Positions 10,098-47,735 are shown, counted from the stretch's first letter. The stretch is 64,000 nucleotides of DNA from Escherichia coli (GCF_048403405.1 NZ_CP183129.1); one strand, 5' to 3'. A program made the numbers and translations. Notes: generated from the sequence alone by a model not told the origin.

Positions 10098-10192
10098 TGG
10101 CGGAAGATCACAGGAGTCGAACCTGCCCGGGACCGCTGGCGGCCCCAACTGGATTTGAAGTCCAGCCGCCTCACCGGAGACGACGATCTTCC
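10098..10192 (-). tRNA. selC: tRNA-Sec (selenocysteine tRNA, selC)
   Basis: Reverse complement of 10098-10192 reads GGAAGATCGTCGTCTCCGGTGAGGCGGCTGGACTTCAAATCCAGTTGGGGCCGCCAGCGGTCCCGGGCAGGTTCGACTCCTGTGATCTTCCGCCA, the 95-nt E. coli selC sequence including the UCA anticodon loop (CTTCAAATC) and 3' CCA. Confidence 0.97.
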
Positions 10193-33497: not shown

Positions 33498-34918
33498 TAA
33501 TCACCCCATAGTGAAGAAAAGTTACTGCTGGCTGCTGGCTGTGATACCTGCTCAGATTGCGGCAATGTCTGCGACGAAGAAGACGTTCCTCTGTCAACTG
33601 CTGAAATAACCCGCAAAGCATCATAAGCTCGACCAGAAGCAGCTTTCAGCGAATTGAACTGGTTTTCCATCTTCCGGCGCTTGGTATCAATGGTTTTTGT
33701 GGAGTCGCCAGGCTGAGGGAAATACATTTGATAATATTTTGACATTTCAGCAGGTACGATAGCTGCCCCTGTTTCCTGACGGAGTATTGCCATTATTGCG
33801 TCATTAGCATTAACAACGTATTGCTGCTCTGTTGGGCTGAGCGTTAAGTTAGCCAGCGTCCCATTACCCAAAGCATTATTAATGATCGCCACTCGCTGTG
33901 GGCTAAGCTGGTCTTTCAGTGTATCTATTGAATCAAGAGCATCCCTAACCCTGTATGCAAATCCAGCAGCTTTTTTAGCCCCTTCTGGCGACTTTTCCAT
34001 GATCTTTTGGGCTGTTGGCAAAGCTATTGGACGAAACCCATCTCCAGATATTGGCTGGTTTAGTTTTCCCTGCTCTTCACTTCCGTCTGTGTAGTATTTT
34101 GTGACAGTGCCATCATCGTTTTCTCTAACACTCATTAATTTTTTGGCGTTTGTATTAATTCCAGCCGCTGCCGCAAATGCCGCCGCCCCCTCTGGATCCG
34201 CCTTTAACATTTGAGCGTACTGATTGTAATTCTGCATTGCTGCTGTTGGTGCATATGCTGACGTTAACGCATTTGCTCGGCTAATATCCTGCCCTCTCGC
34301 CTGAAGTGCTTCGCCAGCCTGATTGCTGCGGATTGTCTCTGCCAGCCTGCCTCGCTCAATATCCCGACCTTCCATTTGATCTTTGATATTGAAATACTTC
34401 TCATGACCGAGAGAAAACAGTGCCATACTACCAGCAAGCCGCTGGAATCCCTGTGGATCATTAACATGCATTTCGGCAACAGACTCAGGAGAAATTCCCA
34501 AGCGACGCATTTCATCTTCGTTATCTGCTATGAATTTTCCAAATGCCCCAGTTCCGAGCGAAGATGCGATTTGAGCACTAGTCGCAAGATGACCAATAGA
34601 ATTTCTCTGGTCGTCATCAATAAAGCCCATCCCTTTCTGAACGCTTTCAAATTCTTCTGGATACTCAGAAATAAGACTGCGCATTTTGTTTCTGTCTCCA
34701 GACTCAAAAGCCCCGGCATATGCTTTCTGAAACTCTGATTTACGCTGTTGTTGACGTGCCTGCTGATTAATCTCAGCAACGCCTCTTAGCCCCTGTAGCG
34801 CCATTAAACCTACGTTTGGCTGCTGCTGATACTGCACAGGCTGAGGAACGGAAGAACGAGGAGCATTATCATTTTGCGGTGCCATGCTAGGCAGCCCGCC
34901 AAGTTGCCATGTCGTCAT
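33497..34918 (-). CDS. Cargo operon gene 3: hypothetical 473-aa Gln/Ala-rich protein; candidate ejection-protein (P22 gp20-like) homolog
   Basis: Translationally coupled to flanking genes (shared boundary positions 34918 and 33497); no TM segments or catalytic motifs recognised. Confidence 0.6.
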   Translation of the reverse strand: MTTWQLGGLPSMAPQNDNAPRSSVPQPVQYQQQPNVGLMALQGLRGVAEINQQARQQQRKSEFQKAYAGAFESGDRNKMRSLISEYPEEFESVQKGMGFIDDDQRNSIGHLATSAQIASSLGTGAFGKFIADNEDEMRRLGISPESVAEMHVNDPQGFQRLAGSMALFSLGHEKYFNIKDQMEGRDIERGRLAETIRSNQAGEALQARGQDISRANALTSAYAPTAAMQNYNQYAQMLKADPEGAAAFAAAAGINTNAKKLMSVRENDDGTVTKYYTDGSEEQGKLNQPISGDGFRPIALPTAQKIMEKSPEGAKKAAGFAYRVRDALDSIDTLKDQLSPQRVAIINNALGNGTLANLTLSPTEQQYVVNANDAIMAILRQETGAAIVPAEMSKYYQMYFPQPGDSTKTIDTKRRKMENQFNSLKAASGRAYDALRVISAVDRGTSSSSQTLPQSEQVSQPAASSNFSSLWGD

Positions 34919-35595
34919 TAGAATCCAAGCCCCCCAACAAGACCAATAAGCCCACCACCAATAGCCCCGGCGACATTACCTATACCCGGAACAACGGAAC
35001 CAAGTTGCGCACCCGCTAAAGCGCCTGATGCCGCCCCACCAATACCACGCGCAAGACTGGATGGCTGCTGCGCCTGACCTGCACGAATAGCGCCAAGCCC
35101 CTGCAAGAGTTGTCCGGTATTATTGGCGTAGTTTTGCCCTGCTGTTGCCTGCCCTGATGCCGCATTCATCCCGACATTTAGCAGGTTTCCATAATTTTGC
35201 ATTTGCCCACTAAGCCAATTGTTATAAAGCATGGGCGCAATGGAAGATAACTGGTTACTGGTAGCTGTTGAGCCAAGCCCCCCGGTAGCTTCTGCTGAGA
35301 CAAGGTTCTGATAACGGGCCTGATCTGCCTGTGTTTTATATAAACCAGAACCAAAGAAATCATTCGCGGCTTTATTCTGCCCTTCCAGAGTCATCAGTCC
35401 TTGCAGTTGTTGTAAAGCAGGCAATCCGACTTCTGCATACGGCTTGAGATTATTCATCACCGTATTCCACTGCTCGCGCTGCAAATCAATTGCCTGCTGC
35501 TGGGCCTTCGCCTGGGCTTTAGAGGCACCACCATCACCGCCTTTTTCGTATACGGCACGATTGAGATGTTTATGAGCTATATGGGTAATTAACAT
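34918..35595 (-). CDS. Cargo operon gene 2: hypothetical 225-aa protein with C-terminal glycine-zipper segment; candidate ejection-protein (P22 gp7-like) homolog
   Basis: C-terminus GIGGAASGALAGAQLGSVVPGIGNVAGAIGGGLIGLVGGLGF is a glycine-zipper type membrane-inserting motif; Gln/Asn/Ala-rich body; overlaps upstream gene by 7 nt. Confidence 0.6.
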   Translation of the reverse strand: MLITHIAHKHLNRAVYEKGGDGGASKAQAKAQQQAIDLQREQWNTVMNNLKPYAEVGLPALQQLQGLMTLEGQNKAANDFFGSGLYKTQADQARYQNLVSAEATGGLGSTATSNQLSSIAPMLYNNWLSGQMQNYGNLLNVGMNAASGQATAGQNYANNTGQLLQGLGAIRAGQAQQPSSLARGIGGAASGALAGAQLGSVVPGIGNVAGAIGGGLIGLVGGLGF

Positions 35596-36050
35596 TCGCT
35601 GAGTTCCTTATATTGTTGCCGTGTTAACTGATAAAGCGTTACGCCGACGGGTTTACCACATCTGATATATGCATCGGCCAGGTGACCAACACGGGTAGCG
35701 CCAAGCAAACGGATAATTGCCCGTCCGTATTTCGTGGTGTCAGGAACCATGGTGATGCTGTTAAGGAATGGTGAGTTTTCGAGAAGCCATTTGCAGAACA
35801 ATCGATGCCCTTGCAGTGCATATTCACCACGGAATCCGGGGTCGTACACCGCATGGCATTCAACAATGCTATGCCAGAAGTTACGCACTTCATGAACGCC
35901 TGTCAGCACTAATCCTTCGTAGATGCCGAGATATACCGCATCAGGCTTGATGTAGTACGTGTGCCCCGGCTCAACAATATTTTCGGTATTGCCAGGCTCG
36001 TTAAGAAAGGCCTGTAATCGCACCGGGTTATCAATAAATTTTAGTTCCAT
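35589..36050 (-). CDS. Cargo operon gene 1: hypothetical 153-aa soluble protein
   Basis: First gene of the coupled four-gene operon; several conserved-looking His/Cys (HEVRNFWH, ECHAVYDPGF); no family recognised from memory. Confidence 0.55.
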   Translation of the reverse strand: MELKFIDNPVRLQAFLNEPGNTENIVEPGHTYYIKPDAVYLGIYEGLVLTGVHEVRNFWHSIVECHAVYDPGFRGEYALQGHRLFCKWLLENSPFLNSITMVPDTTKYGRAIIRLLGATRVGHLADAYIRCGKPVGVTLYQLTRQQYKELSEC

Positions 36051-36676
36051 GCGGTGCCATCCGTTTTCACATACAGCCTGCCAGCGCCTTATCTATTAAC
36101 CCTCGTGCAATTTCATGCAGAGTTGGCGCTACTCCAATTCCTGATTTTTTACGCTGCTCTTCCTGAATTTTCTTTATCGCTTCCATTTGCTTCTCACTTA
36201 TCAATACCGGCTTTACTGAAATAGCCATAACGCCCCCTTAGAACTGTATAAAACAACAGTTATTATAGTTTCGCAAATCGCAATATTCATCATCGTAATT
36301 GCAAAATATGAAACAAATAGCACAAAAAAATGCCACCGCTCAGTAGCTGGTGGCATCGTTCTGTGTGTCAGGTTTTGACAGGTTTTTTATGGACTCTAAA
36401 AACTATATTTATGGTGTCGCATTACTCTTTACGGCAGGCGCTTTTCAGTTCTGCCCTTGCTTCTGGCTCCATTGGTAATTTGATTCGCGATCAGCTATGC
36501 GGATGGTTTGCTGAACAGGCATAACAACTTCTCAGAGGCTGTTTTTTGAACTACGAAAATTTCGTAGTGCTCACTTTCAAAAACGTCACGCCCTTGTACA
36601 CAGGATTTTACGAAAGTCTCGTAAAACACTCTCTGATGCCAGCCAGGTGTTGTGCGCATCAATTCAGTCACATTGT

Positions 36677-36787
36677 GTTGGTTCAAAATACCGTGTTGTT
36701 GGTTCAGTGTTGGTTCAATAAAAAGAATAAAATCCTTATAAAACAATACTCTTTACAAATTGAACCAACTGAACCAACTGAACCAAC
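36677..36787. repeat. Iteron array 2 (ori-like), inverse arrangement of array 1, immediately downstream of the primase gene
   Basis: GTTGGTTCA at 36677-36685, 36698-36706, 36709-36717; tandem TGAACCAAC at 36761-36769, 36770-36778, 36779-36787; internal spacer CTCTTTACAAA is the inverse of TTTGTAAAGAG in array 1. Confidence 0.8.
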
Positions 36788-36812
36788 ACCTTTTCTACGC
36801 ACATGAAGAAGC

Positions 36813-39572
36813 TCATTCTTCAGATGAGTTATAATCTCCTGGCTGGTAATTGAGTACATAAACGTTTATTTGTCGTCCCTGAATACGTGGTGATTTTCTT
36901 TGGTATCCACGACCGCTGTTTGGTGGGGTTAGCATCCCGGCTTTTTTCAACACTTCAGCAAACTGTTTTGCGTTGAAACCACATGCGATCTCCTTTTCAA
37001 ATGTGGCCGGGAATGTGTAGAAAATCATTGGGCTTTCGTCATGTTCTCCACGCTGACGGTATCCGGCTAAATCTTTGATGGGCAAATCTGCCGGGCTGTA
37101 TGGAAATGGTGCAAAACGGCTAAGCCCATAGGCATTAAGAAATGCCTCCGTTTGTTCAATAATCTGCTGATGCTCTTTGTTACCTGTGCCGAACTCGCGC
37201 AACCATGCGTTATAGCTGTGCTGTATCGCATCACGGCATGTCTGAGCATCCCAGCCTGTTACAACCTCGCCTAACAACAATGCGGCCTCCAGAATGGCAA
37301 ATCGCGCGGCTACACGGTGAACCTGCTCACCATAATCGGGTGGGATCAGGCTTCTCCATCTGCTTTCGCAATCACGAACAGTTTTAATAGCCTGTTGCTG
37401 GTGGTCTGCCAGCCATTTAATCCACTCACGCCCGGCTGCGCCATGGTGATGCTGGTAAGCGTCTTTCAGTGCGTCTGCGTGCTGTTTTCCGTTCTGGTAA
37501 TCGTGAAAGCGTACTGCTTTACTCAACGGAATATTCAGCAGTCGCACCAGTTGCCCGGCTTTGGTTTTTCGCCCGGAAGTAGCGATAAATGTTTCTAAAT
37601 CCATTTCTCCGGTGCTGATTGCCACTGTACGCCAGCGTTTTAGATCCCGGTTTCCACCATCTTTAGCGCCTTGCAGTTTCCCTACACCGTTAAATAACGC
37701 ATAGGCAGACTGTGAAACGCTGACAGGATCAGCGCCCTGACCAACTTCATCAAGCGGCATTAGTCCGTCATTGTGGGCGGCGGCCTCATTTGCCAGCCCC
37801 AGCGCGGTTCCGTACCTCGTCAGCCGCAGTAAATCAGGGTTGCCGTATAAGCTGCTCGCCACGTTTGCCGTGGTGGTCTTACCTGCGCTCGACTGCTCAT
37901 AGAAATGAATGCCGAACCCGTCAGCGCCCACCAGCCCAATCAATGGTGCTGCCAGTGCTGCGCCGATCCCGGTCATCATTGAATAGTTACCAAAGGCCAG
38001 ACGCGCCACGTTATCACGCCAGCTTTGCGCGCTCCCTGAGACGGTATATCCGGCTGCGGCTGAGCTTCTCCCGCTGAACAGCACAGGATTTTCAGGTGTT
38101 CCGATGATTTCCCCATCAGGCATGATGTACGCTCCGCATTGCCAGCCAGTGGCATGAGCAACACGCCACAATTCACGAGAGCCACTGCGTTGTAGCCAGT
38201 CTGCCAGTATTGCTCTGAGGCTGCTTTTGGTCGTGACATTTACCCCACCAGCTTTAAGTGTGCGCCATCCTTCACGTTCACCAATATCAGCCAGTGGAAT
38301 GGCAGCGGTTGTCGGCGTTTCAGAACCAAACGACAGCCAGCGAAGAATGAGATACTGGTCTTTATCGTCTCTGCCAGTACCGATAACGCTTAACGGAGAA
38401 CATAACCAGCTTTCGTTATTGATGATTTCTCCACTCTGGCTGTCAGCTCTCGGAGATACCCAATAAATACCATCCTCGCGGCTTTCTATTCTTGGTTTCA
38501 GTGGGTCGGTATCCATAACCTTAAAATCGCTTCCCTCAATGGTCTGTGGCTCCTGTTTCACGCCATTACCCTGTGGTTGGTACATTGACTTATTGAACGC
38601 TTCTGTGGCGCATTTAATGCCGTGTTTTTGGTGGTAATCATTCCAGTCTGCTTTGTGACCTGTCGGGGGTAATGCCACCCATCCAGAAACAGATAAAGCT
38701 GCTTTTTCTGCTGCTATTCTCCCCGTGTTTTGTCTTCCTTCGCTGTGGTCGTTATCCGCAGCAATGATGATTTGTGCTGAAGGAAATTTATCCCGCAGTA
38801 CCTGGGCGACATATAACAGGTTCCCGGCATCAATCGCCGCCACTGTCAGCGCCTCTGGACGAATTAAATGGGCAGATAATGCCGTTGCTAGCCCTTCTGC
38901 GATTAAGATGCTCTGTGTTGTTTCTGGTGCGTTTATGGCGTGATATGCCCCCCGCTTTGCTGAACCTGTCAGGAGTCTTTTTTCACCATGTGAGGTAATA
39001 GTCTGTGCTGCTGTGACTGCGCCGGATTTATCCACCAGCGCCAGCAACAGAGATCCATCGGGCAACACGGGGAATGTAAAATCACCTACCCCTTTCGCAA
39101 CCAGATAATCAGATTTGCCGTTTACAGCCTTTCTGCGCATGTCATCAAACTGACGGGAAAACGTATCCCGTCTTTGTTGTTCGTCCTTCTCCGCCCTTTT
39201 CAGGCGCTCCTGTTCGCGTTGCTGGCGCTCGGTTTCCAGTTGTTCCCGTTTCTGGCTGGTGGCTTCTGGTGTTTCCGTTGTCCGGTAATCAATACCCAGA
39301 ACATCAGCGGCAAGCAGCGCCGCCTCTGTTGTGTCGCAGTTATTTACGCGTTTAATTAAATCCAGCCCATCACCAGCGCCGCACTGATTACAGATGAAGC
39401 TACCGCGCCCGTTGTCATCGAACCGGAATCGATCTTTGCCCCCACATGCAGGGCAGGGAGCATGACGGCGCGGAGAGTCAGGGACATTTATGTTCAGGCA
39501 GCCCAGCACATGAGGCCAGTTGTTTTCAGACGCACTGATAACCTGACGGATAAGATCAATGTTTCGCATCAC
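36813..39572 (-). CDS. Replication primase-helicase (zinc-finger + TOPRIM + helicase-like domains; P4 alpha / PICI Pri-Rep type), 919 aa
   Basis: N-terminal Cys4 motif CPACGG...CNQCG; TOPRIM-like acidic motifs (LIAEGLATAL..., IIIAADNDHSEG); P-loop-like SSAGKTT in the C-terminal half; followed directly by iteron array 2. Confidence 0.8.
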   Translation of the reverse strand: MMRNIDLIRQVISASENNWPHVLGCLNINVPDSPRRHAPCPACGGKDRFRFDDNGRGSFICNQCGAGDGLDLIKRVNNCDTTEAALLAADVLGIDYRTTETPEATSQKREQLETERQQREQERLKRAEKDEQQRRDTFSRQFDDMRRKAVNGKSDYLVAKGVGDFTFPVLPDGSLLLALVDKSGAVTAAQTITSHGEKRLLTGSAKRGAYHAINAPETTQSILIAEGLATALSAHLIRPEALTVAAIDAGNLLYVAQVLRDKFPSAQIIIAADNDHSEGRQNTGRIAAEKAALSVSGWVALPPTGHKADWNDYHQKHGIKCATEAFNKSMYQPQGNGVKQEPQTIEGSDFKVMDTDPLKPRIESREDGIYWVSPRADSQSGEIINNESWLCSPLSVIGTGRDDKDQYLILRWLSFGSETPTTAAIPLADIGEREGWRTLKAGGVNVTTKSSLRAILADWLQRSGSRELWRVAHATGWQCGAYIMPDGEIIGTPENPVLFSGRSSAAAGYTVSGSAQSWRDNVARLAFGNYSMMTGIGAALAAPLIGLVGADGFGIHFYEQSSAGKTTTANVASSLYGNPDLLRLTRYGTALGLANEAAAHNDGLMPLDEVGQGADPVSVSQSAYALFNGVGKLQGAKDGGNRDLKRWRTVAISTGEMDLETFIATSGRKTKAGQLVRLLNIPLSKAVRFHDYQNGKQHADALKDAYQHHHGAAGREWIKWLADHQQQAIKTVRDCESRWRSLIPPDYGEQVHRVAARFAILEAALLLGEVVTGWDAQTCRDAIQHSYNAWLREFGTGNKEHQQIIEQTEAFLNAYGLSRFAPFPYSPADLPIKDLAGYRQRGEHDESPMIFYTFPATFEKEIACGFNAKQFAEVLKKAGMLTPPNSGRGYQRKSPRIQGRQINVYVLNYQPGDYNSSEE

Positions 39573-39927
39573 CGTACCCCACGTGGTCTATAGCGTTTGC
39601 GATATGGCTAACCAGCATCTGCCACTTGGTTATTCCGTAATCAGTCAGCATGCCATCATTGTTTAGCCACATATCAAATTCAGCGGTTGTCGCAAGTTTC
39701 CACTTATCGCCGTGGACAGTCCTCATTGCTGGGTACATGAATGCGCAAATCAGATCACAAACATCTGACGGCTTCAGAGATGTAGTAATAGTGCGTCCCT
39801 CTGGCGTCTGAATTGCCATTTTCTCTTCACCAGTAGAATGAAGGTTATGAATCCACACAGCACCAGCAATCTTTGCCACCTGCTCTCCGATTGCGGAGCT
39901 AAGCGCCATTTCTGCATTTTCACGCAT
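39556..39927 (-). CDS. Hypothetical protein, 123 aa (element replication/regulatory operon)
   Basis: Overlaps primase start by 17 nt and the upstream ORF by 8 nt (coupled operon). Confidence 0.5.
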   Translation of the reverse strand: MRENAEMALSSAIGEQVAKIAGAVWIHNLHSTGEEKMAIQTPEGRTITTSLKPSDVCDLICAFMYPAMRTVHGDKWKLATTAEFDMWLNNDGMLTDYGITKWQMLVSHIANAIDHVGYGDAKH

Positions 39928-40261
39928 GAGAACCTCCCGCTACAGTTGCGCCCATGTCATTAACCATGCTTTGCCATATCTCACGCCCGACGTCAGTCAA
40001 TCTGTCCTTAGTGACGCAACGATCAAGAAGCTCGATCCCCACGGTTTCCCACTGCGGGTAGAACACTTTCATGGCTGCCAGTGCGTAACTATCGATCAGG
40101 CTGCGAACGCCTTTTACTCCATTGACGATTTCCACACGTACGGCCTCTCCGTCCGCATCAATCATGAAATAGTCCCCGCCGCTGGTGGAGGTAATGTGGT
40201 TATACAGTGCTGACGCATACTTATTTGCCAGCGCATTCAGTCGGAAATTTTTAGTAATCAT
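39920..40261 (-). CDS. Hypothetical protein, 113 aa
   Basis: Co-directional, translationally coupled ORF in the small-gene operon upstream of primase. Confidence 0.5.
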   Translation of the reverse strand: MITKNFRLNALANKYASALYNHITSTSGGDYFMIDADGEAVRVEIVNGVKGVRSLIDSYALAAMKVFYPQWETVGIELLDRCVTKDRLTDVGREIWQSMVNDMGATVAGGSHA

Positions 40262-40271
40262 GGTTCCATCC

Positions 40272-40874
40272 TCAGTGCGTCACTGGTTCCGATGGCATGC
40301 CGTTTTCATTCAGTTCAGCTATAAAGCTGTTGTGAAGTTCAGCAAGCGTTTCACGACCAAATGGAGTCAGTGCTCCTTGTTCCACATCCATCATGGCTCT
40401 GTAGAAAATGATGGAGCGTTCTGTGCCAGACTCGATGCCAAAACGTTCTATCATCGCGCCCTCAATGTTGTTTGCCATAGCGAGGCGCTCTGCTACTGGA
40501 TACAGCGGCATGGCGACGATGCCGTTGGAATAAACAGCCACTTCGGAAGGATTGCCAGTATCATCAATGATGCTGACAGTGCCGTTTTCCTCTCTCATTT
40601 CCAGCATGAATACTGTTGCGATCAACCATCTCCACATAATGACGTTATGCTGTGATGTGTAATCGAAATATCCCTGGTTGCCGCCATCGGCAATAGCGAG
40701 ATGTATTGACATACCTTCATCTGGTTTATCGTCATAATCCCCGGCATCCAGACGATTTACGGCATCAATATATGAGACGGTCTCAACGCGTTCTGTCATG
40801 CCATCGTTGCTGCGGTGCATGATGTTTACGCCGTCAGGCGTTGCTTCTGCCTGGAAAGTTAAGAAATTATTCAT
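40272..40874 (-). CDS. Hypothetical protein, ~200 aa
   Basis: ORF-track ORF 40272-40979 trimmed to the internal Met (MNNFLTFQ...) because the longer reading overlaps the upstream 73-aa ORF; GAGG-type RBS. Confidence 0.45.
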   Translation of the reverse strand: MNNFLTFQAEATPDGVNIMHRSNDGMTERVETVSYIDAVNRLDAGDYDDKPDEGMSIHLAIADGGNQGYFDYTSQHNVIMWRWLIATVFMLEMREENGTVSIIDDTGNPSEVAVYSNGIVAMPLYPVAERLAMANNIEGAMIERFGIESGTERSIIFYRAMMDVEQGALTPFGRETLAELHNSFIAELNENGMPSEPVTH

Positions 40875-41088
40875 GTTTCGCCTCGCCTGAATGATTCTGT
40901 AACTCATATTTGCCCAACAATTCGTCTGCTTCCTGAATAGCTTCTGGTACGCCATTGAGCAGTGACATAACCGCGCCAATCATTAACTTGTCTCTGTTGC
41001 TGGGGCTGGCCCCTTCAAGCCAGAACCCTAAAACAGTCTGAACCTGTTCGATGCGACATTGCGCTTCAATGAGCTGGATGTTGGTCAT
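40867..41088 (-). CDS. Hypothetical small protein, 73 aa
   Basis: Coupled small ORF (overlap ATGA-type with neighbour at 41085-41088). Confidence 0.4.
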   Translation of the reverse strand: MTNIQLIEAQCRIEQVQTVLGFWLEGASPSNRDKLMIGAVMSLLNGVPEAIQEADELLGKYELQNHSGEAKHE

Positions 41089-41348
41089 TTCGCACTCTCC
41101 GCATCGATTAAACTGATATCTATCAGAGAGGTAACTTTTTGTAGCCAGCTAGTGATTACTGTCGCCTGTTCCCCTCCCACCGATGGAAGAATCTCATTCA
41201 TCACATGAACCAGACCTGTGCGCGCTCTGGTAAGCCGTTCAGTCGTGCGATCTGCAAGAGTGAATGTGTCTGGATATGGTTCTTCACGGCTCAGCAATGA
41301 TTCAATTTCCAGCTCACACGGATGACGATAAATTAAGTTGATATTCAT
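41085..41348 (-). CDS. Hypothetical small protein, 87 aa
   Basis: Coupled small ORF in same operon. Confidence 0.4.
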   Translation of the reverse strand: MNINLIYRHPCELEIESLLSREEPYPDTFTLADRTTERLTRARTGLVHVMNEILPSVGGEQATVITSWLQKVTSLIDISLIDAESAK

Positions 41349-41539
41349 TTTTCACCCCCAAGAATTACCAGCTCTGCACGGGCATCGTTAACCAAAGATG
41401 AGCACGCTTTAATCGCATCCACGACATCAGTAGCGTCCATTTCTTCAGCCGAAAGACTGACAGCAACCAGGACAGCCGCTGCTTGCTCGATTAATTGAAG
41501 TGCGGACGTAAGGCGAGGGGTATTAATTGAGTTATTCAT
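41345..41539 (-). CDS. Hypothetical small protein, 64 aa
   Basis: Coupled small ORF in same operon. Confidence 0.4.
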   Translation of the reverse strand: MNNSINTPRLTSALQLIEQAAAVLVAVSLSAEEMDATDVVDAIKACSSLVNDARAELVILGGEK

Positions 41540-42599
41540 TGGTTGCCCCCGTTTTTACTGGCATTTCGCCACCTTCCAGCAGGAAATGAACGTCACGAAC
41601 GGCGAGATCCAATATCGCGAGTAACGCCTTCAGTCTTTCGTCTCGTGAGGGAGAGTTGCTCACCAGAATGTCGTTAATCACTTCTGTCAGTGTGATGATC
41701 TGGCTTGTGCGTTCGAGGGGATCCATATGCACATCGTAGGTTTTAATCATGTGCCACCTCCATGCGGATACGACCAGCAAAAAAGCAGACGTGATCGCGC
41801 ACCAGAGAACGGCGAGCATCGCGTTCAGACTCGGCAGCAATATGATGAATTCTGGCGGTAATTGTCGGGCAATCGCGGCGAACTGCGGCGATAATCCAGA
41901 TAAATTGCGGTTTTTGGGTAGGGGTAGTAGCCAGCATGTGGCAGCCTCCATTCGATAGCATGTAACGCTACCACCGGAAACGCCAATTTCGCTGGTGGTA
42001 GCCCAGACAGGGTTGGCGTAACCGGCTCGAATGGATACCGGCGCTTCCGAAGAAGCCCCTGCCTGAGCCACCATTGATTGACAAAGGCGCTGGATTATAC
42101 ACCAACGCCCAAAAAATGGGTGAGTCAGACCTACGACATAAAAAAAGACGCTCGGCGCGTCATATGTCGCCATTCGATTTACCAGGACGCCAATCCCGGC
42201 ACCCGTTTTATGAGGTGCCTTATAACCATAAACCGTGTTGCCGCATAACGGCAAGCTCTTTTTTATGGACTCCGAAAACTCGCTATTGGAAGCACCAGAT
42301 GCACAGTACATCGCGCTCATTTCGTTAACGTCACGCGCGCGGATGAAGGTTTTTGTGGAGTCACTACGCGAGCGGAAGACATCATCTACGACCAGAAATT
42401 TTCTGGCGCAGCCGCTGACCTTCTCAATGCTAATATCATCGCCCGAGATTTCTGGTATGGTTAAGGCATCCGTTCCGACCACCAGCAAATGATAAACTTT
42501 GCTTGTATCTGCTGTATTAATGCCTGACTTTGCCGTCATATTGCTGGATTTTGGCGACATACCAGCCAGTGAAAATGTCTTCTTCTGGACGGGTATCAT
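41532..42599 (-). CDS. Hypothetical protein, 355 aa (C-terminal half of reading frame is of doubtful coding quality)
   Basis: Start overlaps the stop of the upstream small gene (42596-42599), supporting a real start; C-terminal half is Trp/Cys-rich and may reflect a frameshift or separate small genes. Confidence 0.4.
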
Positions 42600-42772
42600 T
42601 GGTTAACCTCCGCGAACTCCTTCATGAAACGCGCCAGCGGTTGTACGCATGGCGATTGATACCCGTCGCGATAAAACGTCACTCGGTTGTGAGACACGCT
42701 TTCGACAGTAACGAGTGCTCCGTGGGCATCTTTGTAGCGTTTTTGTGGTTGTGGTGTTCCTGTTGGCTTAGA
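42596..42772 (-). CDS. Hypothetical small protein, ~58 aa
   Basis: ORF-track ORF 42596-42862 trimmed to the internal Met (MSKPTGTPQ...) that overlaps the antirepressor-like gene stop by 4 nt. Confidence 0.4.
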   Translation of the reverse strand, partial: SKPTGTPQPQKRYKDAHGALVTVESVSHNRVTFYRDGYQSPCVQPLARFMKEFAEVNQ

Positions 42773-43601
42773 CATTGAGCGCCTCCAGACGCTTGGCGAG
42801 CCAGCGTTGCGACAGGCGGGTGAGTTCTCCTTTGCGCTGCTCATATTCCATGCCCATATCAATTAACGTGATATTGGTGCTTTCGAGATATGAGAGGTGC
42901 TCAAGCTGTTCTGCGTTCATATGGTCGCGAGGTTCGCCAGAATAGCCATTTATCCGCGCCCACTGCTTAGCAGTTAGCCCACCAAGAACGATACGAGAAA
43001 TCATATTGCTCTCGTTTGTGTAGTGGTGTTGCTGCGTCATTTTCCCCATCTCGGCACGGGCCATATTCAGCGCATCGCACATTGGCTTAAAGTTGTTTGC
43101 GGCACTAATACGGGCTTTTAGCTGGCGACGATAGCGGGCGGCGATTTCAGGCACGGTACGCTGTAATTCTTCCTCGCACTGGATGAAATAACGGCGGATA
43201 GCGCGACCCTGATCATTGCGTTCGATCATTGCCAGTTCTTTCGCCATTCCGACACTTAACAGATAGTCTTTGCCGGGTCTGCCAGAGTGCTTTATCTTGC
43301 TGTAAGCCGCGCCATTCGGGCTTTTCCCCAAATTTGGGGAAATTGTTTTATGGACTGAGTAATCGTGCCCAATGGTGAAGTCATATTCAGAGATGCGATC
43401 AGTGATCCATGTAGAGAAGTCTTTTCCCACGCCCAACGCTTTGTGTAACGCTTTTGCGCTAACAATATTGGTTTCACGCCCACCGATATGACCAGGAATA
43501 ACCGGGACAATTGCGGCAAATTCATTACCGTTAATTGTGCCCAGAGAGGCGTTCAGATGAGGGGCGGCCTCAGAAATTAATCTGCTTTTTTCGATGTTCA
43601 T
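42768..43601 (-). CDS. Phage antirepressor-like protein (AntA/KilA-type N-terminal domain), 277 aa
   Basis: N-terminal region ...IVSAKALHKALGVGKDFSTWITDRI... resembles AntA/KilA-N antirepressor domains; C-terminal coiled-coil; typical of satellite/prophage regulatory modules. Confidence 0.55.
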   Translation of the reverse strand: MNIEKSRLISEAAPHLNASLGTINGNEFAAIVPVIPGHIGGRETNIVSAKALHKALGVGKDFSTWITDRISEYDFTIGHDYSVHKTISPNLGKSPNGAAYSKIKHSGRPGKDYLLSVGMAKELAMIERNDQGRAIRRYFIQCEEELQRTVPEIAARYRRQLKARISAANNFKPMCDALNMARAEMGKMTQQHHYTNESNMISRIVLGGLTAKQWARINGYSGEPRDHMNAEQLEHLSYLESTNITLIDMGMEYEQRKGELTRLSQRWLAKRLEALNV

Positions 43602-43613
43602 TTTCAGTCTCCG

Positions 43614-44045
43614 TTAGGCGGCGTTAAACGCGTTCGGGTAGAGTTTCAGAATGTCGGCAATTTCCTGCTGAGAAAGTCCGTTGTGATCATTTATGTTCGC
43701 AAGATGGTTAACATGAGTGATCACTTTCAGAACATCACCACGGCAGGAGAAACGGTAGCGAAGGTGTGTTCCGATACCATCAGGATTCTTTTCGTCGATA
43801 CGCTCCAGAGTGATTCCAAGCTGGCGTTCTAACTCTGTTGCATAGTTACGACCAGAAGACAGACGGCAGTAGCGAAGAATGTCATTTTCTGTCCATCCCT
43901 CTATACCAGTACGCAGCATATAGACTCTGGCACGATGCTTTTTCGGTGTGCGCTTTGGTGCTTGAAGGGATTTTGTCAGGGGCGTAACATCAGATACGCG
44001 AATATCTGAATTAGCCGCCTGTAATGGGCGGTTTTTCTTTTCCAT
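43614..44045 (-). CDS. Hypothetical basic protein, 143 aa
   Basis: Immediately downstream of alpA, start/stop abut (44045); Lys/Arg-rich N-terminus. Confidence 0.5.
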   Translation of the reverse strand: MEKKNRPLQAANSDIRVSDVTPLTKSLQAPKRTPKKHRARVYMLRTGIEGWTENDILRYCRLSSGRNYATELERQLGITLERIDEKNPDGIGTHLRYRFSCRGDVLKVITHVNHLANINDHNGLSQQEIADILKLYPNAFNAA

Positions 44046-44248
44046 CAGGCCACCTTCCCGCGGCGTTCTGCCAGCCAGTTGTGAATCTCAACCGCATCAA
44101 ACGCAGTTATTTTTTCTCCCAGCTTTACCGGACGTGGTAGTGAACCGTTTCTTACTTTACGGTCGATGGTGGATACACTAACGCCCAGCAATTCAGCCAG
44201 GCGGAAGCGTCTGATATAGCCTTTTGTAGGAATAGTGTCGGTGTTCAT
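44045..44248 (-). CDS. alpA: AlpA-family transcriptional regulator (prophage CP4-57-type excisionase-like HTH)
   Basis: 67 aa; MNTDT..IRRFRLAELLGVSVSTIDRKVRNGSLPRPVKLGEKITAFDAVEIHNWL is the canonical AlpA/MerR-like HTH pattern. Confidence 0.85.
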   Translation of the reverse strand: MNTDTIPTKGYIRRFRLAELLGVSVSTIDRKVRNGSLPRPVKLGEKITAFDAVEIHNWLAERRGKVA

Positions 44249-45328: not shown

Positions 45329-45423
45329 TGCGTCACCTTTTACGCTGCGCCTTATTTTGTGATTGAGCCAGGCGGTAAGGCTTCCCGCTTTTCGCCCCGT
45401 CGAGCTAGGCTCAATCTATTCAG

Positions 45424-46683
45424 TTAGTTCGCCCTTCTGAGAGGCGTTACGTTGTAGTCTTTTCCGCTTTCCAGTGCCACCAGCAGATCAGCCCACTGTG
45501 CCAGTGCTGCTTTACGCTCATCAAAATACTGATGGCGGTTATAAATCCCCTCTACGCCCTTAATGCGATGATTGAGGCATCGTTCCGCCACGACAGGATC
45601 AACACCCAACGCTGCTAAATGAGTACGTGCGGTGCGTCGGAAGTCGTGAATCGTGAAATTAGGCACATCCGGCATTTCGGCGCGAACCTTAGCCAGTGCT
45701 ACGGGCAAAGTGCTTTCCTGAATATGTGGGATCATTCTGTTTTGCATCTTCCTGGCTGGAAGCACCCATGCGCTATTACATGAAAAGGTGTGTAGCTCTC
45801 TCAACCATTCAACGGCTGGGGAAGGTAGAGGTATATCAATAGGGTCTCCGTTTTTGCTGCGTTCTTCCGGCAAATGCCATACCGCACCATCTAAATCAAA
45901 CTCTTCCCATCGTGCGGCGCATAACTCCATCTTACGAACGCATAGTGCCAGCAATAGCTTAAATGTCAGTTCGTTCTGGCGGCTGAATCCTTTTGCGGTG
46001 CGCATAGCCTCGAATAGCCTGATAAGCTCATCGCGAGTTAGCCAACGGTCGCGGGAAACCTCTTTACCACCAGCATCAGATACTTCAAACGCTGAACAAG
46101 GGTTTATCTCCAGAGCGTGGCGTTTTATCCCGTAGTCAAAGATACGGCGTGTCCAGCGTAATACATCTGTTGCTATCGTTGGTGCTCCTCGGTCAACGAT
46201 ACCTTTCAACATGTCGTCAATGTGGCGTGGCTTAACGTCCTCTACCTTCATATGCCCAATGCAGGGGTTAATATCCTTATCAATTCTCCGGCGAAGGATA
46301 TCGGGATGTTTCCATCTCGGAAGTATCTGGCGCTCGAAGTATTCGGAGGCCAGATCTGAAACACGCATGGCGTTTTTCTCAGCCTCCATTTTTGCCAGTG
46401 CTTCAGCTTTTCGTTCCTGTTTCTCTGCTGCTACGTCATAGCCAAGAGCAACTCTGGCTGACAGCTCTTTTGCTGTTTCTCTGGCTTTTGATAGTGACAG
46501 TTCGGAGTAAGAGCCTATAACCATAGCCCGCTGCTTTCCTGCGAGCTTATAGCGGAATCGCCAGAACGGGGCTGTGTAGTTTTTGGGGTAGCAAATATAA
46601 AGGCCGTTGCCGTCTGCCTTGCCATCAAATCTGTCTCCCGCCTTTATCCATGCGCGGATCTGCATATCTGTGAGTTTTGGCAT
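45424..46683 (-). CDS. Tyrosine recombinase, P4-type integrase, 419 aa
   Basis: From MPKLTDMQIRAWIKAG...GNGLYI (P4-integrase N-terminal arm-binding pattern) to C-terminal catalytic region with ...HDFRRT...LNH..., ending ...GIYNRHQY (tyrosine nucleophile context); adjacent to right-end repeat. Confidence 0.9.
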   Translation of the reverse strand: MPKLTDMQIRAWIKAGDRFDGKADGNGLYICYPKNYTAPFWRFRYKLAGKQRAMVIGSYSELSLSKARETAKELSARVALGYDVAAEKQERKAEALAKMEAEKNAMRVSDLASEYFERQILPRWKHPDILRRRIDKDINPCIGHMKVEDVKPRHIDDMLKGIVDRGAPTIATDVLRWTRRIFDYGIKRHALEINPCSAFEVSDAGGKEVSRDRWLTRDELIRLFEAMRTAKGFSRQNELTFKLLLALCVRKMELCAARWEEFDLDGAVWHLPEERSKNGDPIDIPLPSPAVEWLRELHTFSCNSAWVLPARKMQNRMIPHIQESTLPVALAKVRAEMPDVPNFTIHDFRRTARTHLAALGVDPVVAERCLNHRIKGVEGIYNRHQYFDERKAALAQWADLLVALESGKDYNVTPLRRAN

Positions 46684-46740
46684 TGCGAATACCTGAATAT
46701 CGAATATGGGTGTGTACATAAAGCAATGTACATGAAAGTC

Positions 46741-46764
46741 ATTATGTACACCTCTATGTACACG
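46741..46764. repeat. Right-end direct repeat (putative attR core / integrase-binding repeats)
   Basis: ATTATGTACACCTCTATGTACACG; 22/24 identical to 28810-28833; additional TGTACA motifs at 46711-46740. Confidence 0.55.
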
Positions 46765-46808
46765 CATATTGTGCGCTTTATTGCGTCGTTATGATAGCTC
46801 ATGATAAC

Positions 46809-46871: not shown

Positions 46872-47735
46872 TTATTCGATATTCTGGATCTGCTCGCGCA
46901 TCTGCTCAATCAACACTTTCAGCTCGATGGCAGAATTCGTCACTTCGGCATTGATAGATTTCGACGCAAGAGTGTTCGACTCGCGGTTGAACTCCTGCAT
47001 CATAAAGTCCAGACGACGACCAACCGCTTCTTTTTTCTTCAGAATGTTGTAGGTCTCTTTGACATGCGCTTCGAGGCGGTCCAGTTCTTCGGCAACGTCA
47101 ATTCGTTGTGCCAGCAGAACCAACTCCTGCTCCAGACGGTTGTTTTCCAGTTGCACCTGAGCATCTTCCAGCTTCGCGACCAGACGCTCACGTTGCCATT
47201 GCAGGATTTCCGGCATATGGGCGCGGACTTTGACCACTTCGGCGGTGACGCCTTCCAGACGCTGCTCGATCAATGCTTTCAGCGCCTGACCTTCGGTTTC
47301 GCGTGCGACGATAAAGTCGTCCAGCGTACCATCCAGCGCCGCGAGAATTTCAGCGGCAATCGCGTCGAGATCCTGCTCCTGGGCTGCCATTACGCCCGGC
47401 CAGCGCAGAATATCAACCGGATTTATTTCCCCTTCGTCGCTCTGCATTTTTACCCAGTTCGCGGCGGTTACCAGCTGTTTAGCCAGTTTTTCGTTGAGGA
47501 TCAGCTCACCTTGTGCGCTAACATCTGGTTCATAGCGCAGGGTACATTCCACTTTACCGCGCGTCAGGCGAGAACGAATACGCTCGCGAACGACAGGTTC
47601 AAGGCTACGGAACTGCTCCGGCAGACGAAAGTAAGTTTCCAGATAACGCTGGTTTACCGAGCGCATTTCCCAGGTTGCGCTCCCCCATTCACCCTTGATT
47701 TCACGCCGGGCGTAGGCGGTCATACTGCGGATCAT
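46872..47735 (-). CDS. yicC: Stress-induced protein YicC (YicC-like family)
   Basis: 287 aa MIRSMTAYARREIKGEWGSATWEMRSVNQRYLE...; conserved neighbour of rph. Confidence 0.9.
   Translation of the reverse strand: MIRSMTAYARREIKGEWGSATWEMRSVNQRYLETYFRLPEQFRSLEPVVRERIRSRLTRGKVECTLRYEPDVSAQGELILNEKLAKQLVTAANWVKMQSDEGEINPVDILRWPGVMAAQEQDLDAIAAEILAALDGTLDDFIVARETEGQALKALIEQRLEGVTAEVVKVRAHMPEILQWQRERLVAKLEDAQVQLENNRLEQELVLLAQRIDVAEELDRLEAHVKETYNILKKKEAVGRRLDFMMQEFNRESNTLASKSINAEVTNSAIELKVLIEQMREQIQNIE

Follow-up and report, generated by a model that had tools for sequence, protein, structure and literature searches.

We analysed a stretch of 64,000 nucleotides of Escherichia coli (GCF_048403405.1, NZ_CP183129.1), hereafter called the window, which contains a phage-parasitic element that, judged from its sequence, is a phage-inducible chromosomal island (PICI) of the EcCIMP1-like kind found in E. 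coli. Directly upstream of its primase gene the island carries eight consecutive open reading frames (ORFs) on the (-) strand (39556-42862; coordinates are those of the window unless stated), and the longest of them, with 355 codons, is annotated as an 'ash family protein'. With a probability of roughly 0.8, we consider that this region is a P4-like RNA immunity and early operon segment of the island, and that the 355-codon frame behaves as a read-through frame like eta of satellite P4. The frame covers two structured RNA genes of the isrK and C4 families, an icd gene read in another frame and a 72-aa gene read in the same frame (Table 1).

Both RNAs were detected by Rfam above their gathering scores, inside the 355-codon frame and on its strand, and the same pair is present in P4 and in five related islands. 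IsrK has previously been described as a structural homologue of P4 SeqA (PMC4825925). A terminator scan of the isrK segment found an intrinsic terminator, composed of a GC hairpin followed by a run of T. For the C4 RNA, the predicted fold was compared in seven variants, and all 28 pairs hold, with no broken pair and with compensatory changes at 11 of them. The leader is preceded, 6 nt upstream of its 5' end, by a promoter candidate that aligns with the P4 motif TTGCCT-N18-TATAGT upstream of the seqA leader, and this motif recurs at the corresponding place in six other variants. As the motif is below the threshold of a simple consensus scan, its promoter activity is a prediction.

The two RNAs and icd are linked by a short complementary sequence. 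The string TCGAATGG occurs exactly three times in the window: in the unpaired linker of isrK (seqA), as its complement CCAUUCGA, which the second inner hairpin of C4 carries in its loop (seqB), and upstream of icd (seqC), where it overlaps the Shine-Dalgarno sequence GGAGG at 41945-41949 on the (-) strand. We compared this region in a collection composed of P4, six E. coli islands and 14 loci from viral contigs, and found six specificities, in each of which seqA, seqB and seqC change together: TCGAATGG in the window, TCTGAAGG in L012, GTAC[G/A]AGG in L007, AATC[G/A]AGG in L006, CTGTATAG in L009 and TTCACAGG in P4. In L012 (4558-4785) both RNAs are almost identical to those of the window (41991-42218) except for the three sites, where TCGAATGG is replaced by TCTGAAGG, and these two types represent a natural minimal pair for immunity specificity. 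C4 might have a second promoter at a perfect TATAAT (42093-42098 on the (-) strand, some 15 nt upstream of its 5' end), which has no convincing -35 element; this TATAAT occurs in the window and L007 types only, and we did not count it as a part of the system because it is absent from the L006 and L009 types.

The frame that spans these elements is open in a way that differs from an ordinary gene. From the -35 element to the ATG of icd (278-363 nt), none of the seven variants, which represent the six specificities, has a stop codon in the long frame, with respect to 1-7 stops in each of the other two frames, and the only difference in length, 39 nt in one variant, keeps the frame. We then counted variable sites by codon position in 20 relatives. 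The neighbouring genes antA (17/14/41) and orf200 (24/16/49) showed the third-position excess that is the signature of coding sequence, and the counts for orf73 (1/0/6) and orf113 (3/0/7) were too low to decide. No segment of the long frame showed such an excess, with about 50% of the sites variable in the spacers and in C4, and 27% in isrK. The lack of stops, yet without any third-position excess, indicates that the frame is conserved as an open frame and not as a protein sequence.

The composition of the predicted product follows the elements underneath. Tryptophan plus cysteine make up 2.4% of residues 1-123, 5.2% of residues 124-220, 9.5% of residues 221-283 and 0% of residues 284-355, so that the rich part, residues 124-283, overlies the RNAs and icd. 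The only Pfam match of the product is Phage_ASH (PF10554, 105.2 bits against a gathering score of 26), which covers residues 124-232, corresponding to nucleotides 41904-42230, namely isrK, C4 and the start of icd; the equivalent segment is matched in Eta of P4 and in two divergent relatives. In P4, too, Phage_ASH matches the translated RNA segment, and membership of this family therefore says little about a protein function. On this alignment, what the Phage_ASH model describes, in the window and in P4, is isrK and C4 read as protein, together with the ribosome-binding site of icd.

A preliminary description of this operon, made from the sequence, had considered the N-terminal half of the 355-aa product plausible and the Trp/Cys-rich C-terminal half doubtful, possibly owing to a frameshift or to overlapping small genes. 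The doubt was justified for the middle of the frame, which is not ordinary coding sequence, and misplaced for the last 72 residues, which contain neither tryptophan nor cysteine. Overlapping genes were essentially the right explanation, considering the icd gene, the 72-aa gene and the two RNA genes under the frame. A frameshift or a sequencing error is excluded, because two complete genomes carry the sequence unchanged or almost unchanged and most of the 20 relatives keep the frame open. The N-terminal half is in turn less plausible than it seemed, as it is partly made of DNA antisense to a phage terS/pac fragment (see below) and shows no constraint at the protein level.

The icd gene starts at the ATG at 41937, preceded by GGAGG-N7, and its product is 43% identical to the Kil part of P4 Eta (BLASTP, E 9e-9); the gene is annotated as Icd-like in other E. 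coli genomes. The 72-aa gene corresponds to the last 72 codons of the long frame. It has a GGAGG-N7-ATG of its own inside the 3' end of icd, with an ATGATTAA overlap, and it is annotated separately in NCTC9040 as WP_001384866.1. Locus L016 has the start of an unrelated gene at this conserved icd junction, so the 72-aa ORF is a gene in its own right; it has no family match in Pfam, NCBIfam or PHROGs.

The way in which these elements could work together is suggested by P4. In the quiescent state, the promoter inside the 355-codon frame would give a short isrK-type leader carrying seqA, which would mostly end at its own terminator, and transcripts reading through would be processed into a C4/CI-type RNA. 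The seqB loop of this RNA would pair with seqA, and with seqC, where it would cover the ribosome-binding site of icd/kil and block translation of icd; by analogy with P4, transcription would end before the small ORFs and the primase gene. The RNA block of icd and the early termination would thus leave the island silent and immune to its own kind. Upon induction, transcription would come from the upstream alpA region and be accompanied by an unbroken relay of ribosomes over alpA, orf143, antA, the DUF4222 gene and the 355-codon frame. Translation through the leader, the terminator, C4 and seqC would prevent the RNA-mediated stop, and the coupled small ORFs and the primase would be expressed. 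The 355-codon frame would then be kept open for the act of translation and not for its amino acid sequence, with its last 72 codons serving also as an icd-coupled gene.

This scheme follows P4 in several respects. In P4, whose immunity region comprises PLE, seqA, the cI/CI RNA, seqC and nested kil/eta, the immunity circuit is formed by seqA, the CI RNA and seqC (PMC4825925, which cites Sabbattini 1995 and Briani 2000), and the termination specific to immunity is averted when eta is translated from the late promoter (Forti 1999, in the summary of PMC10111431). The two loci share the order of internal promoter, isrK/seqA leader, C4/CI RNA and seqC on the ribosome-binding site of a Kil/Icd-like gene, the three-way complementarity of seqA, seqB and seqC, the Phage_ASH match on the same segment, and the small ORFs followed by the primase downstream. 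Each also has a long ORF that begins upstream of the promoter, is coupled to the gene before it and extends over the RNAs; P4 eta is coupled to an alpA homologue and runs over seqA/isrK and CI/C4 into kil. The window differs from P4 in that three extra genes (orf143, antA and DUF4222) lie between alpA and the frame, that the N-terminal extension of the frame carries the terS/pac fragment of a helper phage, that the frame runs into the next gene (355 codons with respect to about 200), and that icd is out of frame, while P4 kil is nested in frame in eta. Moreover, the small ORFs downstream are unrelated to epsilon, orf151 and cnr, and sid, psu and delta are absent. In gene order and pairing sites, the locus belongs to the P4 kind of RNA immunity, with the out-of-frame icd and the fusion of the read-through frame to the next gene as variant features.

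Related circuits are found in phages. In the immI region of P1 and P7, composed of c4 RNA, icd and ant, an antisense RNA masks the ribosome-binding site of icd, whose translation is coupled to downstream expression. The window shares with immI and with isrK-orf45-anrP of Salmonella Gifsy-1 the same Rfam families (C4 and isrK), an antisense RNA predicted to cover the ribosome-binding site of a small first gene, and the presence of an antirepressor gene in the module. Unlike in P1/P7 and Gifsy-1, the antirepressor gene of the window lies upstream of the RNAs, and is therefore not under C4 control by this route, and the downstream cargo is a replication module.

We considered whether the 355-codon frame may instead encode a true regulator of the 'Ash family', belonging to the Bro/antirepressor network, whose amino acid sequence matters. 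The Phage_ASH match, the protein annotation in hundreds of E. coli genomes in RefSeq, the good Shine-Dalgarno sequence and coupling of a frame that stays open in most relatives, and the listing of Phage_ASH among the domains of the Bro network (PMC10111431) would all agree with such a protein, and the paper on EcCIMP1 treats the 'Ash family protein' as a conserved protein (PMC11773190). However, the Pfam domain coincides exactly with the two structured RNA genes and the start of icd; about half of the spacer and C4 sites vary without third-position bias, and the variation tracks the RNA pairing. In addition, relatives differ in how far the frame extends at its C-terminal end (241, 284, 289, 343 or 355 aa) and in its register to icd, and the N-terminal part lies antisense over terS DNA of foreign origin, with variation in the terS frame. 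RefSeq itself is inconsistent on the same DNA, which is annotated either as a 1068-bp 'ash family protein' or as an Icd-like gene plus an 'ash' pseudogene, to which some genomes add the 72-aa ORF or a pseudogene of a 'DNA-packaging protein' (L002, L005, L006 and L040 were compared). The history of the annotation can be traced in the P4 records, which call the 137-codon ORF at this place 'put. ash gene' (X02534) or 'cI gene product' (X51522), and P4 immunity is now ascribed to the CI RNA (PMC4825925). Taken together, these observations make a sequence-constrained Ash protein improbable. Still less credit can be given to the idea that the long frame is accidental, arising from a frameshift, a sequencing error or an untranslated chance frame open over non-coding DNA. 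The odd composition of residues 124-283, the inconsistent annotation between genomes and the three relatives with frame changes inside or near icd speak for an accident. Against it stand the sequence itself, which two complete genomes share without change or almost so and which is 99% identical in others, the absence of stops in this frame only among all variants, the GGAGG-N7-ATG together with the ATGA overlap with the upstream gene, and the precedent of a translated eta in P4 (PMC10111431).

Several observations weigh against our preferred reading, a translated eta-like frame over an RNA immunity switch. The promoter candidate matches only four of six positions in each hexamer and was missed by the consensus scan. 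In three of the 20 relatives (L005, L015 and L016) the long frame ends earlier, with the changes located inside or near icd, and the extension over icd and on into the 72-aa gene may be incidental, a single event in our count because this stretch is nearly invariant among the relatives. P4, L009 and L016 have icd in the same frame as the long ORF and the window has it in another, so the P4 scheme may not transfer in every detail. The mechanism of eta translation in P4 was taken from a secondary summary (PMC10111431), and finally, the long polypeptide may have a function of its own.

The N-terminal half of the 355-codon frame contains a further element. Codons ~50-88 are antisense to a fragment of a P22-type terS gene (gene 3), whose match to P22 sets in precisely where the annotated 22-bp pac site starts (AF527608 positions 4-25). 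The equivalent in the window, GAAGGTTTTTGTGGAGTCACTA, matches P22 at 16 of 22 positions and agrees with 16 of the 17 positions of the pseudo-pac pattern (PMC11226127, which also gives the P22 pac consensus). The segment 42345-42451 on the (+) strand, which lies opposite codons ~50-85, is 92% identical over 107 nt to terS nt 268-374 of phage Bas106. Using the 19-nt core string of the pac site itself as the search pattern, we found four phage contigs that contain this string together with full terS and terL, three of which show homology over terS nt 259-374 (116 nt, 93% identity). Across 20 copies from islands, the only variable position of the pac part is the fifth (G/A/T), and the rest of the fragment varies. 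Three alleles flank the pac site in the islands, GCGGAAGACATC, GCAGAACAGGTC and GCAGAGAAAGCC; the first is as in Bas106, the second as in P22, and the last is a third type. The variable sites of the fragment follow the sense frame of terS (5/5/11) and not the frame of the island. These phage-type flank alleles and the variation in the terS frame indicate repeated exchange with phage genes.

For EcCIMP1, which carries the same pac fragment, experiments with the P22-like phage Kapi1 showed excision and transfer at a very low rate, and the packaging route was left unexplained (PMC11773190). From its sequence, the pac copy most likely lets P22-like helper phages with a gp3-type TerS package the island. 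That EcCIMP1-type islands carry a working pac copy of gp3-type phages, which would be refreshed by recombination with terS alleles of the helpers, is a proposal to which we give slightly less than even odds. If it is true, the high-efficiency helpers would be P22-like phages with a gp3-type TerS and not Kapi1, which has an unrelated TerS of 142 aa and no matching sequence; the sole sizeable DNA similarity between the island and Kapi1 (L041) is the gene-14-like DUF2824 gene (27948-28536 of Kapi1 against 35461-36050, 81%). The possibility that the fragment is a recombination scar, or an antisense RNA against helper terS mRNA, and not a packaging signal, deserves a serious if minority share of belief. 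The fragment is antisense to the island operon, whose transcript would be complementary to helper terS mRNA over about 116 nt; on the downstream side of pac, island copies have alleles characteristic of different phages, which points to recombination; and the helper used in the experiments, Kapi1, lacks such a sequence. Against a scar or an antisense RNA speak the start of the P22 homology exactly at the 22-bp pac site, a pac portion with a single variable position next to a variable remainder, and the exact recurrence of the core in phage contigs with full terS and terL; the extremely inefficient mobilisation of EcCIMP1 by Kapi1 (PMC11773190) fits a non-cognate helper. The two functions may coexist, since the island operon transcribes the complement, and the same segment might also be an antisense RNA against helper terS mRNA.

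A precedent is given by the cos-bearing Gram-negative PICI 11capE, in which 258 bp are 90% identical to the cos region of the helper (PMC10111431). Both islands carry a short stretch about 90% identical to a packaging-recognition region of the helper, and the window island likewise has no terminase gene. Unlike the cos-bearing PICIs, the window has a predicted pac (headful) site taken from inside terS, and this copy lies in the regulatory (Bro) zone, within a predicted translated frame, and not in the late zone. A helper pac copy inside a read-through frame is apparently a feature that has not been described. Island L009 has a different N-terminal segment, for which no match was found in our phage collection, so that the idea of a general packaging-site cassette could not be extended to other islands.

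The island spans approximately 28.6-46.8 kb of the window (about 18 kb), between dinD (27695-28531) and yicC (46872-47735); its borders are approximate, because no attachment repeats longer than 12 nt were found between the two ends. The layout is that of a Gram-negative PICI, with integrase, AlpA, a Bro/antirepressor zone, primase and a late zone in one orientation and within 10-20 kb, as in the four-zone scheme of PMC10111431. No capsid, portal or terminase genes were found in the island, and homologues of the P22 ejection-protein cluster (14-7-20-16) are present. The segment 39400-43700 has an identical copy in E. coli O111:H8 strain 7-54 11A.

The satellite setting suspected by the preliminary description holds, as 9.3 kb of the window (34758-44055) are 97.5% identical to EcCIMP1, the PICI of E. 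coli MP1, for which only, in this comparison, helper-dependent excision and transfer have been demonstrated experimentally (PMC11773190). This stretch includes part of gp20, gp7, gp14, the primase gene, the eight ORFs, antA and orf143, with the same Ash/Icd region. The window differs from EcCIMP1 in its integrase and integration site (yicC/dinD against a tRNA-Thr gene next to proA), in the gp16-like gene and in the PerC end; the PerC homologue of EcCIMP1 was reported as a repressor of LEE (locus of enterocyte effacement) expression (PMC11773190). Outside the island, and unrelated to these results, the window contains a tRNA-Sec gene (selC, 10102-10192, (-) strand) and a JUMPstart element (56197-56235, (+) strand).

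Table 1. Features of the island and of its RNA immunity and early operon segment, in order of decreasing window position.
Feature	Position	Strand	Remarks
Integrase gene	45424-46767	(-)	island
int-alpA RNA	45349-45415	(-)	Rfam RF02996, 60.6 bits; between integrase gene and 321-aa ORF
alpA	44045-44248	(-)	follows the 321-aa ORF on the (-) strand; followed by orf143
antA, AntA/AntB antirepressor	42768-43601	(-)	upstream of the eight ORFs
DUF4222 gene, 88/59 aa	42596-42862 (annotated ATG start 42775)	(-)	Pfam PF13973, 87 bits
Long frame, 355 aa, annotated 'ash family protein'	41532-42599	(-)	GGAGG-N7-ATG
P22-type terS (gene 3) fragment, nt 259-374 of 489	42336-42451	(+)	antisense to long-frame codons ~50-88
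22-bp pac-site equivalent	42345-42366	(+)	homology to annotated pac of P22
Promoter candidate TTGCCG-N18-TATGGT	42225-42254	(-)	upstream of isrK
isrK/seqA-type leader RNA	42141-42218	(-)	Rfam RF01394, 67.1 bits (gathering score 50)
seqA	42170-42177	(-)	unpaired linker of isrK
isrK intrinsic terminator	42141-42161	(-)	terminator scan
C4/CI-type antisense (immunity) RNA	41991-42078	(-)	Rfam RF01695, 79.5 bits (gathering score 45)
seqB	42027-42034	 	position of the complement; loop of C4
seqC	41948-41955	(-)	overlaps Shine-Dalgarno sequence of icd
Icd/Kil-like gene (icd), 64 aa	41743-41937	(-)	NCBIfam NF033153, 71 bits; other frame than long frame
72-aa gene	41532-41750	(-)	last 72 codons of long frame, same frame
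orf64, 64 aa, small acidic protein	41345-41539	(-)	family matches sub-threshold only
orf87, 87 aa	41085-41348	(-)	no functional match
orf73, 73 aa	40867-41088	(-)	phrog_20558
orf200, 235/200 aa	40272-40979 (annotated start 40874)	(-)	phrog_1515
orf113, 113 aa	39920-40261	(-)	phrog_37628
orf123, 123 aa	39556-39927	(-)	stop within primase start region
Primase gene, TOPRIM/DUF927	36813-39569/39572	(-)	downstream of the eight ORFs
Homologues of P22 genes 14, 7, 20, 16	31392-36050	(-)	island
DUF2824 (gene-14-like)	35589-36050	(-)	P22 cluster homologue
P22_gp7	34918-35595	(-)	P22 cluster homologue
Inj_translocase/gp20	33497-34918	(-)	P22 cluster homologue
gp16-like DNA transfer protein, 701 aa	31392-33497	(-)	P22 cluster homologue, with transglycosylase region
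PerC-family regulator gene	29217-29504	(-)	far island end

The eight ORFs exist as they had been described, and the RefSeq annotation of the identical copy NZ_CP077574 contains the same eight genes. Their coupling was also rightly deduced from the overlapping start and stop codons: the junctions of the operon are ATGA, ATGAATAA, ATGTCTAA or ATGCGTGA overlaps, with a sole gap of 10 nt between orf200 and orf113. The DUF4222 gene overlaps with the stop of antA at its ATG (ATGTCTAA) and with the start of the long frame at its stop (ATGA), and the end of the long frame overlaps orf64 through ATGAATAA. The statement that none of the ORFs is recognisable did not survive, as DUF4222, Phage_ASH and the Icd-like family were identified. 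For the other six small ORFs (orf64, orf87, orf73, orf200, orf113 and orf123), no functional match was obtained in Pfam, NCBIfam, PHROGs or PADLOC. The proposed likeness to helper-interference proteins found no support in the same four collections, in which none of the small ORFs resembled Sid, Psu, Delta, Epsilon, Cnr, Ppi or Rpp; BLASTP detected no similarity between them and P4 epsilon, orf151 or cnr (orf106), and sequence searches of the PDB with orf200, orf113 and orf123 returned nothing relevant.

Conservation of these ORFs is uneven. The orf87 product keeps 62% identity in the divergent island L009, and orf200 has about 550 homologues, those named being from Enterobacterales. The AlphaFold2 model of orf200 is of low confidence (predicted local distance difference test score, pLDDT, 56) and gave no PDB fold match with E <0.05. 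A search for tandem paralogy in the four small helical ORFs gave nothing significant, and only a weak relationship between orf113 and orf123; these weak paralogues form an optional cassette of two genes, absent in L006, L008 and L009, where orf200 stands directly before the primase gene. The AlphaFold2 model of orf123 shows a helix, a beta-hairpin and two helices (pLDDT 87.8), without a PDB fold match by Foldseek. A likeness of orf123 to ubiquitin was considered and rejected: the E values of 4e-15 to 4e-19 against polyubiquitin are sums of repeat matches of 7-15 bits, single ubiquitin gave E 0.2-0.6, the model is not a beta-grasp, and no ubiquitin was found by Foldseek. The small ORFs occupy the position of epsilon, orf151 and cnr in P4, between the immunity region and the primase gene, which by analogy suggests roles in helper interaction or in replication control.

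In conclusion, recognising this locus as an RNA immunity switch, as we propose, changes the annotation and the comparison of these islands. The six co-varying types of seqA, seqB and seqC would offer a simple typing of satellite immunity groups based on sequence. Finally, the pac copy gives a testable answer to the question of how EcCIMP1, an island without terminase, cos or capsid genes, may be packaged, and of which phages may be its helpers.

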